Shown here in pieces: positions 8,437 to 48,025 of a DNA stretch of 64,000 bases. The stretch comes from Yuukianura sp. NJ FZ-2021 (Eukaryota). The notes below the pieces were generated by a model that was not told the DNA's origin, searched no databases, and saw only the letters and a list, made by a program, of their open reading frames with translations. Position 1 is the first letter of the stretch, and every line of letters starts with the position of its first letter. The position numbers were made by a program, and so were the translations under genes. The DNA is taken from assembly GCA_046563655.1 (NCBI GenBank), contig CM102284.1, positions 6,386,001 through 6,450,000 on the forward strand. Reading direction: 5' to 3'.

Positions 8437-9014
8437 GTTAATGCTGGTCCTGGCTCTGAACTGAACTTTGCTACAACACTACAGGGGTTTTGAAAACTTA
8501 ATTAAGACTGGAGCGCGGTATCCCTTTCTCATAGCCACAAAGACATATTCTCATGTTTGATCTCTTTCCACTTCAGATAAAAACATATCGCATGAAGGAG
8601 GTCACTCATGAAATATGTAAGTGGTGCAGGATCAGGATCGATAAGCGATGGAAATCGTGCCGCTGCATCTAGAACATACTATTTTATTAGTAACGCTTTT
8701 CGTTTTTGCACAATAATTTTATCACTTCTGAATACGATATGCCCAATTCATCTGATGAGTTTGGTTTAAAAGTTACGGATTTTTTTATTGCAAGCATTTT
8801 GAAATGAACATTAAATTGTGAACCAACATTCTCATCATATGAAGCGGAGCAGTGCAGCTCGAAATTCGAGTTGTAATTTTTGGCACGAAAGGTTTCTATG
8901 AATGAATGTGCACATGAGTAAAATAATGCAAAATGTTAAGCTGGTTTCATAATTGTTTTGTTTAGATTTCTGGAAGTTTGTAATTCTGGATTCTGACGTA
9001 AACCTGTTCAAACA

Positions 9015-12000
9015 ATGGAGTTTAGCGTGGAATTTATTGGAGCCTCTTGCAACTTGACTTACAATTGTTTGGAATTGACCGAGAATTACTTGGTTTATGG
9101 CTCGAATCATTCAGTTGCTGTGTACGATTTACATGTAAGATTTCTAGAAGTTGACGTTTATGTTATTCTTAAGGATTTAGATTTTTTAGTAACAGTTGTT
9201 AACATTCTTTTAGGAAAAGAAAGTAGTCAAGACCTACGTCAAACATACGGGAAGGATAAACTGCGTTCGATTCATACTTCAAAGGTAGCCTATTTGAGAT
9301 TTCACAAAACCCAGCGTCTGTTGCGACTTTCAATTTCATTCACTACAATTTTGAGGAAAATGTCTGTAATTCTGTATTTTCAGCAATAACAAGCTTCTCG
9401 TAACGTGTGGATCCGACGGACAGCTAATAATTTGGCAAAATTCTTATGACACGACACAAATAGAGGATTCTGTAGGAAAAACCGGAATTCCCTGCCTTCT
9501 GGAACCAAAATTGTGCCATCGTTCACAACCTGTTACTCCAATTACTGTCTGTAATGGGATCAGTCATGAGGAAAATAAACCGATCATTGGTTACATCACA
9601 TCTCTATCCTCCGTAGTACTTGGAATCGCCGATTTGGAAGGTTTGTGTTGCCCACCTCACGGATTGATCCTGCTTTTACGTATTACAGACTTGTTGACTT
9701 TTGAAAAAATTTTAGGTGGAAGTTTTTCACCATTTCAATCGATTATTCTTCACCAGACCGTAGCACTGGATATCTTGTTTGAAACTCTTCCTGGAGATGA
9801 ACTGATGATGGCTTTGGGATTGGGCTCAGGTGAAGTTGCCTTGTATGGAATACCGGGTGACCTTAAACCCGGTCCTGACATGCCTTTTACCAAAATTTGT
9901 GGCCTTAACAAACATGAAGATTGGGTGAGATGTCTCGCTATAACTACTTTGGGTAAGTCTTAACTAAAAACGTTTCTAATTACTTGGATAATTTTGATTT
10001 TGAAACATTTTGCCGTGTTTTAGAAAATGGGGAGCGACTTTTAGCTACTGGTGGCCAAGATTCTTTCATAGCCATTTGGAGATTCAAGAATGACGAGACT
10101 ACTGCTGTAATGGAAGACTTTGAATTCCAAGTTGTAGATTTCAAAAATCGAAAAATTGTATTTGATTCTATGATTCTTGGACATGAAGGCTGGGTTAACT
10201 CATTGCAATGGAATAGTAAAGGTGAGAAACTACTGCCAACATGCCCTAAAAATTGCAAATTCAAGAAGTGCAAATTCAATTTTTGTCAACTTTTATTATT
10301 GTTTTTGACAGGTGAACTGATTTCATGTTCCAGTGACCAGACTGTCATCATTTGGGAAAACGTTGGACAGATTTGGATGGAAAAGACACGTTTGGGCGTT
10401 GTCGGTGGCCAAACGTTGGGAGGCTACTGTTCTCGCTTCGATTCACAGCATGTTGTCACCGCCGGTTTTCAAGGAGCAATACAAATCTGGTCTTGGTCAG
10501 AAGAAACTGTAAGTAATTTATGTCAATACTGCTAGGATTCAAAAATTTTCGTTTTACACAAGTTTCAAACATTTCCAGGAGGAATGGACGATAGAGGCAA
10601 GTGTCACAGGACACTTCAAAGGCGTGTCTGATCTGGATTATGACGCTGAAGGACGCTTTATCGTCACTACAAGTGAAGATCAGACGAGTCGGATATTTGC
10701 TCCTTGGGGAACAGATCGATGGCATGAGATCTCACGTCCACAAATTCACGGTCATGACCTCTTTGCACTCAAATGTGCTGGGGATTACATTGTGTCCGGA
10801 GCTGAAGAAAAAATTCTTAGAGCATTCCAACCTACAGAAGTATTTGTGGCAAACTACGAAGATGCTTCAGGCATGCCAATTCATCTGACCAATGGTAAAA
10901 TTGCTTTCATTTTTGTGTTATTTTGATGTTAAAATGTCAGATCAACTTAGATTTTCTGTATATTTTTGTAGTCTCTGAAGCAGCGTCAGTACCGGCACTA
11001 GGACTATCCAATTTAACAACATCGGATCATTTTGATATCATTGGAAAGCGACTTGAGGAAAGACTGGAAGAAGATTTCTTACGTTCTCAGACTTTATGGC
11101 CGGAAACTTGCAAATTGTATGGACACGGTTACGAAATTTGTTGCATCGGAGCATCATCATCTGATCCAATCATAGTTAGCGGATGCAACTCAACCAAGCA
11201 ACAATTTGCTGCAATAATTTTATGGTTAGACACATTTTATGGTTTTGGCTCTTTGGCTTTTGTGAAATTTTTTCCTTGCAAAAATCCCACCGATTTACAT
11301 TTTGCTCGTTTCAGGTCCACTGTAAACTGGAAAAGCTTAGGAGAATTTCCATTTCATAAGCTGAATGTCACGGATCTTGAGTTTTCCAAGAATGGACAAC
11401 GTCTTTTGTCTGCCTCGAGAGACAGAACTTGGGCTGTATGGAAAGTACTTCGTCCTCGGGAAGCTGGAGAAGCGTTTTCTTTAGAACTCCAAGAAAATAA
11501 TAATGCACACTCCAGGGCATTGACAGTCGGAACGTGGTGTCCAAACAATGACTATTTTGTCACGGGAGGAAGAGACAAGAAACTGATGATCTGGAAAGCT
11601 GGAAATCTAGAGTAATTGACCAAATCTTACTTTAGCTAACTAAAACTTTACACTTTTAAAACTTGTAATAAAGTTTTTAAACTTTTTTTTTTTGCAGAGA
11701 AATGAAAGATTATGGAAAAGTTGCGGTCGAAACTTTTCAACAATCAGTGACTGCTGCTGCAGTGAACGAAAACAACATGATTGCTGTTGGTCTTGAATCT
11801 GGTATCATCACAATCCTTCAGCTAACGTTCGGATCAGAGTCAAATGCTGCTCAACTGACAGCTTTGTTGACCTTGGGTAACAGGTATGCTTTATGATTTT
11901 ATGAATTTTATGAATTCAAAGTTGACACTGCATCATGGTATGAGATTTACGTATGAACTTTTTTATTGCAGTGATGCTCATCACGGGCTGGTGAAACGGC

Positions 12001-12279: not shown

Positions 12280-13614
12280 TTATGTTGTTGTACCTCTATG
12301 TAAAACGATGACGTTAGATTTTGCCGGAGACGTTTGAGTTTTTGTTGCAGCTAAAGGCAAAATTTTGATTTTGGTCGGAGGTCCTCCGATGCTAGCAGAA
12401 TGTTGTGTTGGTGGCAGTGTTAAAACAGAAGCTCTTTTTTCAAATCCTTTTCTCGGTCGACCTCTCTTGACCTTGGTGATGCTGGGTTTAGGAAATACAA
12501 TGGATTCCACTGGGATAGCGGTGTGTCCAGTTATGGGAGGTGTCTGTTTTGGTAAAATTGTTACCTCAACTGGACTCGGTGTCACCGTGGAACTTGCGCA
12601 CAAGTCCGGAACAATAGTTTCCACTTGGAGCGTTACAGATGAATCTGCTAGTGGCTCTGCTTTAAGACGACGCAAAGCGGCTTGTGTTACATTACAATTG
12701 GAATGTTTACTTAATTCTTCTCTCAAAGCAGCATTTTCACCCCGAATTCTTTTTAGTTCCGAATGTACTTGTGCTAAAAGACTAATCAGTTGCTTATTTT
12801 TCATTTCTAGTTCCGACACCCACTGTTTCCGTCTCTCACGACTTCGGACAGCAGCAGCTCTGTTCCTTTCCAGCAGTTCTGTTCGCTTGTCAACCTGTGG
12901 AAGGTCAAGTACTGACTCAATTGCTGCTGATGCTGATGCTGATACTGGCTGGATTGTGCCTGGAACTGACTTTTGCGCTGCAATTTCTTTCTGGTTATCG
13001 GGATTCAGCGATTCCGAATGCGCTGGAGGCGGAGAATCGCAATTTTGTGCTGCAGCTTCTGCGACTAAGGCTGACAGTGGAACAGTAATTGTCAGATTCT
13101 GCTTTTTAGTGATGCTGGAGTCTGACGGAGGAAGAGGCGTTGACGACGGAGTAAATCCAAGAACTTGCGGTGTATTCAGTGTATCGTTGGACATACAAAA
13201 ATTTTGATTGTCTTGGATAGACGAAGATCCAGAAGAAGTGGCTCTTGCAAATTGTTCGTCAAAGGGATTAACATTTTGAATATCCTGGAAAAATCCGACT
13301 TCTTCGGAGATTCTGAAAAAGCGAGTGGGTGTGGGCGTTTCATCGGTGAATCCTTCTGGAGGTTGGATGTCCGAAGTACTGCCAGTACCATTGCTGTTAC
13401 CAAAACCTAAGCTGAGACTCATTTCGTGACGTTTTCGATGGACTTGAAGGTGATCTTCATTTGTAAAGCTCTAAGTTTAAAAATATTTCAACAAAAAGAT
13501 AAATTGCATTTTGATTTTTTAGAAATTCATTAATCTTTTGAAATTTTTTCAAGGGTTTGAACAAACCTGGAAGCAAGTTGAACATTTGAATGGTTTTTCA
13601 ATTGGGCTCTCCAT
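12280..13614 (-). CDS. ATF2/ATF7/CREB5-family bZIP transcription factor with N-terminal C2H2 finger
   Basis: Exon 1 MESPIEKPFKCSTCFQ splices to SFTNEDHLQVHRKRHEMSL. DETPTPTRF SAPK sites, NPFDEQF, and bZIP LLERNRAAAVRSRERRKQWV..L..HSNC. Confidence 0.9.
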
Positions 13615-16254: not shown

Positions 16255-17850
16255 ATGGTTTTGGAAAGTACTATGATTTGGTAAGAAGTTGACCTGTTGA
16301 TGTATATGTGACCCAAGCTTTGATCATGCCAACGTTGCTGTTAACTTAATACCTTGATGTTATTACAGTGTGGACGACAGTGACTACATGAGAAATGGGG
16401 ATTTCGTACCGACTCGTATGGCGGCTGTGCAGGATGCTGTGAACATCGTTTGTCATACGAAAACAAGGGCTAACCCAGAGAACAACGTGGGTCTGCTCAC
16501 TCTTGCGAGGTGTATAAACGGTTTTAATTTATTAATGTTATAGTATGCGAAGGAGTAAGTAACGATGAATGTTTCTGGCAGCTCCAAGGTTCTCACCACT
16601 TTGACAACTGACTCTGCTAAGCTCATGTCCAAAATGCTGGCGTGCCAACCTGCTGGAGATCTGCAGCTCATGTCAGGACTTCGAAAGGCTCATTTAGCTT
16701 TGAAACATCGTCAGGTATGTACAATCCAACATCTTGAAAGTACATTTCAAGAGCTATCTTGTTATGCTATTTTTAACTTATCCAGGGGAAGAATCACAAG
16801 ATGCGGATTGTCGTTTTTGTTGGCTCGCCATTGGATAATCCGGATGCTGCCGAATGGATTCGTCTGGCAAAGCGGATGAAGAAGGAGAAGGTCAATGTGG
16901 ACATAATCGCCTTTGGGGACGGATCATGTGACGTCCTTCAACAATTTGTTGAGACTTTGAATGGAAGAGACGGCAGTGGAAGTCACTTGATCGTAGTACC
17001 ACAAGGGACTTCTTCCCTTTCTGATGCTTTGATGGCTTCTCCGATTCTCCAGTCTGAAGACGGTATGCCAATGCCCGGTGGTGGTTACGAATTTGGCGTG
17101 GATCCGAACGACGATCCAGAGTTGGCTCTTGCTCTCCGTGTTTCAATGGAGGAACAACGCACGCGTCAAGAAGCTACAGGAATTAGCGGAAGTCAAGCAG
17201 CAGTGGCGGCTCCAGGTATTGGACTTTGGTTCAGCGTTATACTGATGCAGCCTAACAGCATATGAGATATGATTGGAAATCCATGTTCATTGTAGGTACT
17301 TCCGAGGAACAAATGCTGGAACGAGCTCTCGCGATTTCTCGTGAGCAGGAAGCTGCTGCTGCCGCGGGCGGTGCTCATGCTGAAGCTGTCGTTGATTTTG
17401 CGGCAATGACTGAAGAGGAGCAAATTGCTTACGCAATGCAAATGTCTATGCAGGATTCTCAGCCAACGGAAGGTATTTGCAAAAATGTCAAGTGTATTCT
17501 TGATTGATGAAAACTGTCAATTAATCATTCAATTTCCTTGCCTCATTGATACAGGAATGGCTGCGACTGCGTCAGCATCTGTGCCCATGGAATCCGAACC
17601 AGTTGAGGAAGCTGTAATCGAGAAAATGGAATTGGATGAGCCTGGACCAGCTCCTGTTGACCCCGCTGCTGCTGCTGCCGTGCTTGAGGATCCCAATTTT
17701 CTTCAATCCGTTCTTGAGGGGCTTCCTGCTAGAGTTTCAAATGCTGCCGGTGGTACTGCTCCTACTGGACAGGAACCAACTAACCCTGGATCCACCACCA
17801 CCAATACCCAGTCGGACAAAGAAAAAGAGAAGCCTGCTCCGAAGAAATGA
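16255..17850 (+). CDS. PSMD4: 26S proteasome regulatory subunit Rpn10
   Basis: [20 protein letters not shown] vWA domain, [30 protein letters not shown] and [13 protein letters not shown]s. Confidence 0.96.
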
Positions 17851-44020: not shown

Positions 44021-44405
44021 TGCTGTCACTTACAAATCAACGTTCACTATTCTAATACTCGGTACCTGTTTTAGTGAAACTAAAATTAAAGTGTTAAGCT
44101 ATGCTAAGCTAAACTTTAAACTTTGATTCATTTTAGTACAACAGAAAAGAATATCAGAAATCAGATTCAAAATTTTATGAATTTTTGATTTTTCAAAAAA
44201 TTTTGAATTCTAAAATCTGTCACACTTGAACTTCCCGCCTTTCCGAATAACTGTTCCTTCCACATCATACTCTGAATTCATGCAACAAAAAAGAATCAGC
44301 TGATTTCACAAATTAGGGTAAAATAACGTCAATTACTAGAACTAACCTGTCTTATGCTTGAAGGTCAAACGTCATGTTTATTACTATAAATCTGTCGAAA
44401 AATAC

Positions 44406-45807
44406 CTATTCTTGGTCACTGGATTTCAACTTTGAACTAAGCTGGAGCGTCTCTTCTCGTAGACTTTTCAGTTTCGCTTGAATAAAGTCCGTAACGATTT
44501 TCCTTCTCTCCATTGCTGACTTCTCTTGAATACTAATCAGAATTTCGCGAATGTCGATAGGCTCCCCTACATTTATAAGCACTTCTTTGCCAAATCTGGG
44601 GATGTAAGGTGGATGATTCGGCAAAACATTTGCCATTCCTGAAACAATTTGAATTCAACATCATCATTTAATGCTTACAACGCTATGAATTCAAATTCAG
44701 TTTGTGGTCAAACCTTACCAGTATGCCAAAAAGGCAAGATATGCAAAGGCTTTTGACATTCCGTTAATATCCTTCCGATTCCCCACTTCAATCGATGAAG
44801 TTCTTGCCGCTCGGTATTTATCCTCCCTTCCGGAAAAATGTGTATCCAGTCACCAGCATTTACGCGTTCGATGGCTACAGAAAATTACAAATGCGTAAAT
44901 TAAGTTTAAAGTTGCAACACAAAAATTCATGGATTCCGAAATTGCTAACTTACCGAAGTCAACAGCCCGCTGATACACTCCACCTCCTCGAATAGTTGGT
45001 ACGCATTTTCCTAAACTGAATAGACTGCTTTCAAACTTTGACCGGAAACATATATCGTACGCTGCAAGGCTCCAGCGCATTTTCTTGTGGTCCGTTAATT
45101 GCTTAGCGTTCATGAAGGCAGCTAAAGTTAAAAAACACACTGATGTAAGTATGACATAATGCTTAGCCTAATCAGGTAGCGCATACGCAATAATTTCTTA
45201 CCAATCAACAGAGGATCATCGATACAGCTCTCGTGATTCGAAACTGTGACTAGAGCAGTTCCTTCCGGTCGATTGAAAATTGCATCCGCCATTCTCTGTT
45301 TGTTTACAATCCGTGTCCTGTTCATCCAACCTAAACCAAAACAAAATTGTCAAGCTTGGTGCTTTTAGGATTAATCAACTTTTATGATTACTTACTAAGC
45401 ACTGACTTGCCCCAAAGTCCAACCATGAATACTGTAAGTGTACTTCTAGCCTTCCAGAAGAAACCTGGCTTGTGAGGAAATGGCCACGTAAGGTTCATGT
45501 TTTGTTCTCGAACTGGTATGTTGCATATTGGAGGAAGCGGCTTCTTGGTTAACACAACTGCTGAGTAAGAGACTGGATTCGAGTCCAACGATTGTATAGC
45601 CACTGTTGTTTGTGATGGCTGTGAAGAATGGATTTTGGATGACAGCGGGATTGGCGACGATGAATTTGGCTCCTTATGCTTTTTGGCAGCTTCAATTGGT
45701 ACTGGTATCGGTATGGGGCTTCCTGCTGCACGGATCGATGGAATTTCTGTTCCCAGCTGAGAGGTCTTGATAAGTATTCTGGATACATTGTGCCCAATTT
45801 TCGACAT
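44406..45807 (-). CDS. TAZ: Tafazzin (phospholipid transacylase)
   Basis: LVTVSNHESCIDDPLL, MRWSLAAYDICF, GKCVPTIRGGGVYQ, WIHIFPEG and VLPNHPPYIP. Start is at 45807 or at the downstream MNLTWPFP. Confidence 0.93.
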
Positions 45808-46124: not shown

Positions 46125-48025
46125 TTATTCAGCTTTGTGCTTTTTTGATTTCTTCTTCTTTTTCTTCTTGTGCTTTGATTTTGAATGTTTCTTGGAACCA
46201 TGGGATGAGTGACGACGATGTGTAGAATTCGATCGTGAACGCGAACGTTCTCTGCGTGGTTCTTCATGTCTGGATTCTGACCTGTGTCGACTGATGCTTC
46301 TAGTCCTACTTCTTGATTTCCTTCTGCAGACGTTAGATCTTTCGTATGACCTTGATGTTGAAGTATTTTCTTCTTTGCGACGGTGTTTGGATACTTTGCA
46401 TACGCTAGAATCTTTACTACGTGCTGAATCTGGAAGTTGAACGCTTCGTGCGTGCTTCGGAGTATTCCATCTCTGCGTCGGTGGAGCTTCCCAGTCCCGG
46501 TCAGCAGCCAGGAATTCGGGCGTAGGATTTCGGAAAACGTGAAGATAGTTACAAGCCTTCCCTTTAAGACACACGCCGCGATTAAAGGCACCACAAATAG
46601 CAGTACGCCAATAATCGATTTTCACAAATCGCAGTGTAAGCTGCTTTCCGTTGTAGAATCGAGCGTTGAATTTCCGATAAGCCTAAAAACACACAGCGAA
46701 TCAGATTTTGCACGGTTGGTTAGTAAAAAATTTTTACAGATATTAGTAAACAAACTTACGTTGACCGATTCCTGAATATTTTTGTACTGAATGTACACAT
46801 TACCCCGAAGATGAGGCTCAAAATTACGACAAACCTTGAACTGTATAACTTCTCCGGATGTGCGAAATTCTGGTAAAACGTCTTCATAAAATGAGCTGTG
46901 AATATCAAAGGATACAGATAACAAAAAAATAAGGTGTGTTTGGAACTAATCTAACGTAAACTTACAGAAATTCCTTCCGCAAATCTGATTCTTCATACTC
47001 CAAGTTAGCGTCCCCATACTCTGAGCATTGCTCCAAGGAAATGTGTGTAAAGAAGTTTTCAATGAGTATTGTACTGCTTAAAGCCGGACTTGGGTGACGT
47101 CTGGAAGGAAATAAGTTTCATTCGTGACATTAAAATGCTAGTCTTTCGTTTTTTACACGTTCTCTGGGTTTGACCCACATTACTTTTTGCATCGCTCATA
47201 AAAACGACAAGCTCCAGTTCTAGAGAAATAAAGACATGGATCATCGTCTGCTCCGGTGCTGTCCGGCATCAGATATGGAAGCGGCGGAGTCTCAATATCC
47301 TGTCAAAGGTCAAACACAAATTATAGTGAACAACCCACCACCATTTTGATACGTTAACACTTACCCCGGAAAGAAATTCCAAAAGCTGGTTAAACTCGGC
47401 ATCCTGGTACGGATAGGTTGATTATAAAACGTTTGCGAGATTCCAAGAAGCATTGTTCCATTTGAGATATGAACGAACGAGTGACGACAAGGTTAAGGAA
47501 AATATTCAACATTTTCATCAAACTTTAAAAATAAATGTGTGCAGTAATAGGATATCTTAAAGCAAATTCCTTGGTTAAGCGTAACCTGTTTGTCCTGTTT
47601 TTCCTTTGCGAGTCGGTCCGCTTCCGCTTTCCGATGCGCTTCAGCTGCTTGCTGCGCTTCCCATTCTATTCGAATCCTTTCCTATTTTCAAAATAAATAG
47701 TTTAAAATCAATTTTATTCAATTTGTACTTATTGAAATTGAGTTACCTTTTCAGCAGCTTCTTCTTGTGCCAATCTTTCGGCTCTCTCTTTCTTGGCCTG
47801 GAACAATTTGTTAGACTGTCGTTCACGCTCCAGCCATGCTTCTTCTTCAAGGTCATGCCAGCGCTGTTCCTCTTGTAGTAACTCCAGACCCGCTTCCGAC
47901 GTATCTTCAAAATCCTCTGACGTTTTCGAGACTTGATTTTTTAGTTCCTCTGCCCTGGTTTGTCTAATTCTGGATCTGCGTAACTTCTTCACCTCTTTTC
48001 TCCACTGCCTTTTGTCCTTACCCAT
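46125..48025 (-). CDS. ZRSR2: U2AF35-related protein ZRSR2/Urp (minor and major spliceosome 3' splice-site factor)
   Basis: N-terminal coiled coil, CCCH CLYFSRTGACRFYERCKKRH, UHM FYEDVLPEF..FKVCRNFEPHLRGNVYIQY, second CCCH AICGAF..C.KGKACNYLH, RS/Lys-rich tail. Confidence 0.95.
47481..47555 (-). other. U12-type AT-AC intron nested in U2-type intron 47404-47585 of ZRSR2
   Basis: On the minus strand: 5' site ATATCCTAT at 47555, branch site TTTTCCTTAAC at 47502-47492, terminal AC at 47482-47481. Confidence 0.85.

Follow-up and report, generated by a model that had tools for sequence, protein, structure and literature searches.

A Candidate AT-AC U12-Type Intron Nested in a U2-Type Intron of a Springtail ZRSR2/Urp Gene

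Introduction

ZRSR2/Urp recognizes the 3' splice site in U12-type introns, and in Drosophila its own gene (CG3294/Urp) is described as a twintron host, with intron 3 of 4 carrying U2 and U12 site pairs and a U12 member of the GT-AG subtype (PMC2831892). The present analysis concerns a comparable element in a springtail: intron 2 of the ZRSR2/Urp gene in a 64,000-nt stretch of DNA from Yuukianura sp. NJ FZ-2021 (assembly GCA_046563655.1, contig CM102284.1, positions 6,386,001 to 6,450,000 of the forward strand), called the window throughout, with positions counted from its first letter.

The fly system is the closest one described. Its U12 sites are reported to be absent outside Diptera and to have been born from cryptic sites in early Diptera (PMC2831892). 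A second study agrees, using 20 insect genomes, 15 of them dipteran and 5 not, with no springtail among them, and presents the Urp twintron as the only known recent gain of a U12 intron (PMC3291851). The geometry of the fly sites is described in two ways: dZRSR2/Urp is listed as nested, the U2 intron being outside and the U12 intron inside (PMC8329584), which is at odds with a description of the fly site pairs as shifted rather than nested (PMC3564746). The U12 isoform of dUrp is an apparent target of nonsense-mediated decay (NMD), with possible feedback on the minor spliceosome (PMC3584512). Springtails resemble Diptera in having undergone an extreme but incomplete loss of minor introns, of which a few are kept (PMC10639083). 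The initial annotation of the window had noted that a U2/U12 twintron is described in insect Urp, and the published accounts bear this out (PMC2831892, PMC3291851).

Anatomy of Intron 2

On its sequence, intron 2 of the springtail ZRSR2/Urp gene is a U12-type intron nested in a U2-type intron. The gene and all the features described for it lie on the minus strand, and reading that strand confirmed every coordinate of the nested U2/U12 anatomy first proposed from the letters of the window. The outer intron (47404..47585) is a U2-type GT-AG intron of 182 nt that lies in phase 0 after amino acid 125, with its GT at 47585-47584 and its AG at 47405-47404. The inner intron (47481..47555) is an AT-AC intron of 75 nt. 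It begins with the 5' splice site ATATCCTAT (47547..47555), immediately preceded by AAG, and it ends in CAC (47481..47483), the terminal AC at 47482-47481 being the ending expected of AT-AC U12 introns.

The consensus of the 5' splice site in AT-AC introns of the U12 type is /ATATCCTT, which ATATCCTAT fits at 8 of 9 positions. A U12 branch site was taken to be TTCCTTAAC at a distance of 10-15 nt from the 3' end and to need no polypyrimidine tract, and the branch-point sequence TTTTCCTTAAC (47492..47502) answers this description: its branch adenosines, A47494 and A47493, stand 13 and 12 nt from the last base of the inner intron. Removal of the inner intron alone would leave a 5' remnant of 30 nt (47556..47585) that begins with the U2 5' splice site and a 3' remnant of 77 nt (47404..47480) that ends with the U2 3' splice site.

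The outer intron differs from the other five introns of the gene. It is the longest, at more than twice the length of the others (65-83 nt), and its 5' splice site, CAG/GTTACG, is the weakest of the gene and, alone among the six, combines T at +3 with C at +5. A weak 5' splice site and a long intron are as expected of a site in competition. The pyrimidine content of the outer intron is middling, its last 60 nt contain no YTRAY branch motif, and the intron with its flanks has no unusual RNA fold (z +0.64, with 148 of 200 shuffles folding equally well); a switch based on RNA structure is not put forward.

One proposed obstacle to inner splicing was considered and rejected. The AG at −2/−1 of the U12 5' splice site might have acted as a splicing block, as in published tests; those tests concern G/GT-AG introns, in which AG/GT makes a U2 site (PMC11347168, PMC10853781). 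The AG/AT of the window makes no U2 site, and the block therefore does not apply; the G at −1 stays as the only caveat.

The U12 signals are rare in combination. A signal set, defined as RTATCCT and TCCTTRAY with a matching AC or AG 9-15 nt past the branch A, was sought on both strands of the window and found once. Simulating the window 200 times with a first-order Markov model gave an expectation of 0.025 such sets when introns were limited to 200 nt and 0.495 when they were limited to 2000 nt, and scaling from the simulation gives a chance prior of about 4e-5 per 182 nt. Taken singly, the motifs are more frequent in the window, with RTATCCT at 6 places, TCCTTRAY at 8 and TTCCTTAAC at one; no branch motif is in range of any of the other 5 RTATCCT sites. 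An Rfam search of the window itself gave no match of any kind, small nuclear RNA genes included.

Two Routes Through Intron 2

The two pairs of splice sites lead to very different reading frames. Splicing at the U2 sites joins ...KEKQDKQ to DAEFNQLLEFLSG (...QDKQ/DAEFNQ...) and gives a product collinear with the proteins of Orchesella, Allacma and insects. This collinearity with the orthologues identifies the U2 route as the productive one. Removal of the U12 intron alone leaves 30 + 77 = 107 nt, and the frame shifts: translation proceeds from ...QDKQ into VTLNQGICFK SFVH... and through the remnant and exon 3 to a TGA in exon 4 (47269..47271), the first stop of this frame, 85 nt before the exon 4/5 junction. 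The TGA lies upstream of the first CCCH finger and of three exon junctions, and the U12-only form thus has the premature stop upstream of junctions that marks alternative splicing coupled to NMD. The 107-nt remnant, the frameshift and the TGA at 47271-47269 ahead of the zinc fingers had all been predicted by the initial annotation, and translation of the spliced form bears them out. When intron 2 is retained in full, the in-frame stop is a TAA inside the branch motif TTTTCCTTAAC itself.

The Branch-Site Motif in a Second Springtail

A metagenome scan with a two-row alignment returned 177 pattern matches, one of which was confirmed. This match, L001, is a 1418-nt contig of the ZRSR2 gene of a related springtail and encodes the protein P0001. 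Its frame runs uninterrupted from the counterpart of exon 3 as far as the stop codon, without the window's introns 3-6 (4 junctions). Because these four downstream introns are lacking, L001 looks like RNA. Upstream of 'EEEFEGFLSFLSG', exactly at the position of the window's outer 3' splice site, it carries at least 164 nt of an AT-rich intron that ends in ...ATAG.

This retained intron contains TTTTCCTTAAC at 58-68, and a 12-nt string, ATTTTCCTTAAC, is common to the branch site of the window and L001. The distance from TTCCTTAAC to the outer AG is 96 nt in L001 and 88 nt in the window. Aligned by MAFFT, the two introns show no general similarity, and the branch motif is all that they have in common. 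In 200,000 simulated sequences of the same composition, the chance of finding TTCCTTAAC in 164 nt was 0.1% (p about 0.001) and that of finding TCCTTAAC was 0.24%. The branch site appears to be conserved in this second springtail. A protein search with Orchesella residues 105-205 gave 2 matches among 100 candidates and no further isoforms spanning the junction.

A methionine codon close to the shifted-frame stop also deserves description. The TGA at 47271-47269 overlaps an in-frame ATG at 47270-47268 on the minus strand (CTGATG, encoding Leu-Met of YLMPD). The methionine of YLMPD is residue 149, just ahead of the first zinc finger; the window, L001, Orchesella, Folsomia and P0036 all share it, and Allacma has Ile. 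A protein begun at Met149 would contain all known domains; re-initiation there after a long open reading frame is a priori unlikely. The springtail protein calls P0034 (Folsomia), P0001 and P0036 begin at the equivalent of Met149, P0035 begins about 5 residues earlier (MRDEGPEG), and all four are without the N-terminal exons. The short N-terminus of P0001 in L001 is explained by the retained intron. As for P0034, P0035 and P0036, gene callers or assemblies may stumble at the same intron.

The Springtail ZRSR2/Urp Gene

The coding region of the gene (46125..48025) was defined by its spliced open reading frame, its homology and its CCCH fingers, and comprises 7 exons and 453 aa. The exons lie at 48025-47747, 47681-47586, 47403-47365, 47299-47184, 47100-46966, 46895-46760 and 46682-46125, and introns 1-6 between them measure 65, 182, 65, 83, 70 and 77 nt, with GT-AG termini in 6 of 6. 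Splicing by script gives an open reading frame of 1359 nt that has a single stop at its end and no internal stops. Exon 2 (47586..47681), 96 nt or 32 codons in length, supplies the end ...QDKQ. Exon 3 (47365..47403) is a micro-exon of 39 nt that encodes DAEFNQLLEFLSG and is kept in springtail orthologues, as the protein alignment shows.

Exon 4 (47184..47299) bears the first CCCH zinc finger, 3' of the shifted-frame stop. Residues 20-38 of its translation match PF00642 with an E of 7e-4, and exon 7 matches the same family with an E of 0.0018; as the query pieces were short, both matches are slightly below the Pfam cut-off. The central part of the protein aligns with relatives that have PF00076, and an RS/K-rich tail is visible in the translation of exon 7. 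The order expected of ZRSR2/Urp, namely a CCCH finger, a UHM/RRM-like domain, a second CCCH finger and an RS-rich tail, is thus found in the window.

Protein comparisons place the gene among its relatives. The exon 7 translation matched 33 of 3629 candidates at E <= 0.001, the named ones being mostly U2AF 35 kDa subunit-related protein 1/2 (ZRSR2). When the spliced protein was run by blastp against a set of 145 proteins, the best match was P0001 (64.7% over 187 aa), and the named springtails gave 60.6% over 241 aa (Orchesella, P0064), 60.3% over 199 aa (Folsomia, P0034) and 49.2% over 354 aa (Allacma, P0002). Identities ranged from 49-65% for collembolan ZRSR2 and from 34-46% for other arthropods. 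A maximum-likelihood tree combined the window protein with 26 of these 145 proteins, picked for taxon spread, with 119 proteins omitted that were mostly from vertebrates and further insects. The window protein falls inside a clade with 100/100 support whose 8 rows are Allacma, Folsomia, Orchesella, 4 unnamed proteins and the window; a separate 100/100 clade of 11 rows holds 9 named insects and 2 unnamed Logan proteins. Since the window protein sits in the springtail clade, the host is a springtail and not a fly. Judged from its protein, the gene is ZRSR2/Urp, and the protein search, blastp and the tree all uphold the identity that the initial annotation had assigned.

Other Features of the Gene and the Window

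Three kinds of observation lie apart from intron 2. Near the 3' end of intron 5, GTATCCTTTGAT (46909-46915, minus strand) is a lookalike of a U12 5' splice site. No branch motif follows it within 3 kb, and probably it does no more than contribute to the pyrimidine tract. Among the orthologues, the 609-aa Allacma fusca protein P0002 consists of a ZRSR2 part up to about residue 385 and a RING/SIAH-like C-terminal part, and is probably a fused gene model.

The remaining observations concern neighboring genes. Just downstream of ZRSR2 on the minus strand, at 44400-45350, are exons with acyltransferase-like motifs (HESCIDDPLL..., FPEGRIN...), which we take to resemble tafazzin. Three long open frames were classified by eye: one on the plus strand at 9000-11600 is WD40-repeat-like, one on the minus strand at 12280-13470 is like a zinc-finger plus bZIP transcription factor, and one on the plus strand at 16777-17850 is like the proteasome subunit Rpn10/PSMD4.

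A Proposed Feedback Switch and Its Alternatives

The arrangement suggests a model in which intron 2 acts as a U2/U12 twintron and unproductive U12 splicing exerts negative feedback on ZRSR2. The model is put forward tentatively, with a confidence that falls a little short of even. Two spliceosomes would compete on intron 2. The major spliceosome would remove the weak and unusually long outer U2 intron and so yield productive mRNA, while the minor spliceosome would remove the inner 75 nt, with ZRSR2 itself recognizing the 3' splice site (AC) of the intron in its own transcript. The U12 route would leave 107 nt and bring in a stop ahead of the two zinc fingers as well as of the UHM and the RS tail, and its product would become an NMD target or a truncated product. 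The more minor-spliceosome or ZRSR2 activity a cell has, the less productive ZRSR2 mRNA it would then make. The analysis establishes the anatomy, the frames, how rare the signals are, orthology, the weak outer sites and a shared branch motif in one relative, and we infer the rest: use of the U12 sites, a U12 product that escapes a second round of splicing and is broken down, and isoform proportions that follow the level of ZRSR2.

Several points weigh against this feedback model. The U12 5' splice site has A at +8, where the consensus has T, and in L001 the nearest AC is 18-20 nt past the branch A, compared with 12 nt in the window. L001 moreover displays retention of the whole intron, not U12 splicing, and the contig begins 3' of any U12 5' splice site, which makes the comparison one of the branch site only, in one relative. 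After U12 splicing the outer U2 sites would be intact, and the 107-nt remnant, itself longer than the other introns of the gene (65-83 nt), could still be removed to give normal mRNA. For this reason the poison outcome is something that we infer only. Conversely, an exon-junction complex placed about 24 nt upstream of the new junction would lie over the outer 5' splice site, which is 25-30 nt upstream, and removal of the remnant might thereby be prevented. The U12 5' splice site also has G at −1, a mild bias, this base being disfavored there in human U12 introns (PMC10853781). Lastly, the feedback hypothesis is unproven in the fly, as CG3294 showed no significant change of expression in Drosophila U6atac mutants by microarray (PMC2952598).

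The intact outer sites are the starting point for a different account, in which the U12 intron is removed first and the 107-nt remnant is then excised through the outer U2 sites, so that both routes are productive. The U12 step would be rate-limiting or neutral rather than a poison, and productive expression would either require the minor spliceosome or be unaffected by it. The inner intron takes in neither the outer GT (47585) nor the outer AG (47404), nor the last 77 nt with whatever U2 branch site they hold, and 107 nt is nearer than 182 nt to the intron size usual in the gene, 65-83 nt. The remnant would nonetheless have the same weak 5' splice site, GTTACG, on which the exon-junction complex may sit. 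Such sequential splicing is considered unlikely, and the fly counterpart is described as producing an NMD isoform (PMC3584512). The retained intron of L001, in a transcript-like contig whose open frame is continuous over 4 downstream junctions, speaks for a scheme in which the U12 signals serve mainly as a platform for the U11/U12 di-snRNP (small nuclear ribonucleoprotein), in the manner of the USSE, a splicing enhancer to which the U11 snRNP binds. With the signals occupied, splicing of the outer U2 intron would be blocked or delayed and the intron retained, catalysis of the inner intron being secondary, and the retained form indeed has an in-frame TAA within its branch-site motif. Feedback of the USSE type is established for other minor-spliceosome proteins (PMC3584512, PMC5473595). 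The USSE, however, is built of tandem U12 5' splice sites, whereas the window has one, together with a branch site optimally placed 12-13 nt from the AC; binding alone needs no correctly spaced AC, and the window has a complete intron. A pure platform is accordingly given a low probability.

Two further accounts deny the inner intron a regulatory part. It may be a neutral or chance cryptic U12 intron, used rarely and tolerated as splicing noise. The comparison with one relative, at the branch site only, leaves room for this, and over very many windows some such combinations are expected at 0.025 per window. Against it, the signals are set in the sense direction inside a 182-nt intron of the one gene that recognizes U12 3' splice sites, where the prior is about 4e-5, and the branch motif recurs at the matching place in L001 even though the introns do not align. 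The same gene, furthermore, has a twintron in flies (PMC2831892), and chance too is held to be improbable. Alternatively, the inner intron may be the relic of an ancestral U12 intron in conversion to the U2 type through flanking U2 sites. Springtails have lost most minor introns (PMC10639083), and twintrons have been proposed as intermediates of conversion (PMC3291851, PMC8329584). No open frame, however, results from the U12 route, nothing in the orthologous proteins corresponds to the 30 + 77 nt flanks, the signals are near-consensus rather than decayed, and the ancestral state at the fly twintron is reported as U2 (PMC2831892). Of the four alternatives a relic fits worst, given the out-of-frame U12 route and the near-consensus signals, and it is very improbable.

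Origin and Significance

Feedback by way of a nonproductive U12 isoform had already been proposed for Drosophila dUrp (PMC3584512), and the idea does not originate with this locus. What is new here is the host, Collembola, and the subtype, AT-AC as opposed to GT-AG; the mechanism itself is not new. The words ZRSR2 and twintron are absent from the published survey of springtail minor introns (PMC10639083), the sole study returned by literature searches on U12-type introns in springtails, and springtails are unmentioned in the available parts of the literature on ZRSR2 twintrons. A springtail Urp twintron has apparently not been reported previously.

Given an equivalent structure in springtails, an old hexapod lineage, the twintron either greatly predates Diptera or was acquired by the same gene on two occasions. 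An independent origin is more economical than a shared one, because the fly sites are reported absent in the 5 non-dipteran insects examined and springtails branch outside the insects; this preference rests on published statements and not on a comparison of our own. That springtails, independently of flies, gained a de novo U12 intron inside a U2 intron of the gene that recognizes U12 3' splice sites is a conjecture, and on balance a rather doubtful one. Both lineages lost nearly all their minor introns. If the conjecture is true, a second gain in the same gene would represent a convergent self-limiting switch on the minor spliceosome, which would suggest that feedback is needed, or evolves easily, once few U12 introns remain. 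A second origin would strongly support function on comparative grounds, and springtails would offer a second, independent system in which to relate ZRSR2 dosage to minor-spliceosome activity.

Comparison With Known Systems

The springtail element resembles the fly Urp twintron. Both belong to the same gene family, both place U2 and U12 site pairs in one intron, both have a U12 product taken to be unproductive and both have prompted the same feedback hypothesis. They differ in subtype and position, the fly U12 intron being GT-AG and located in intron 3 of 4, while that of the window is AT-AC and located in intron 2 of 6. They differ in host as well: the fly twintron is called Diptera-specific, being reported absent in the 5 non-dipteran insects examined, whereas the window comes from a springtail.

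Other systems share single aspects of this design. The USSE of U11-48K and U11/U12-65K likewise down-regulates a component of the minor spliceosome through U12 signals in its own pre-mRNA and by way of unproductive isoforms (PMC3584512, PMC5473595). There, tandem U12 5' splice sites activate a U2 3' splice site that lies upstream, and no U12 catalysis is involved; the window, in contrast, has a complete U12 intron. The USSE is reported to be absent in Diptera (PMC3584512). In the insect prospero twintron, as proposed here, the U2 and U12 spliceosomes compete on one intron. In prospero it is the U12 intron that contains the U2 intron, and functional protein isoforms come from both routes; the window has the opposite nesting, and one of its products would be frameshifted. 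The topology of the window, an external U2 and an internal U12 intron, is the same as that of the vertebrate genes NCBP2, PRMT1, CTNNBL1, CUL4A and SPAG16 (PMC8329584, PMC3564746). None of these vertebrate genes is known to encode a U12 3' splice-site factor, and in NCBP2 it is the U2 route that yields the truncated protein, in contrast to the springtail gene, where the U2 route is the one that preserves the reading frame of ZRSR2/Urp.

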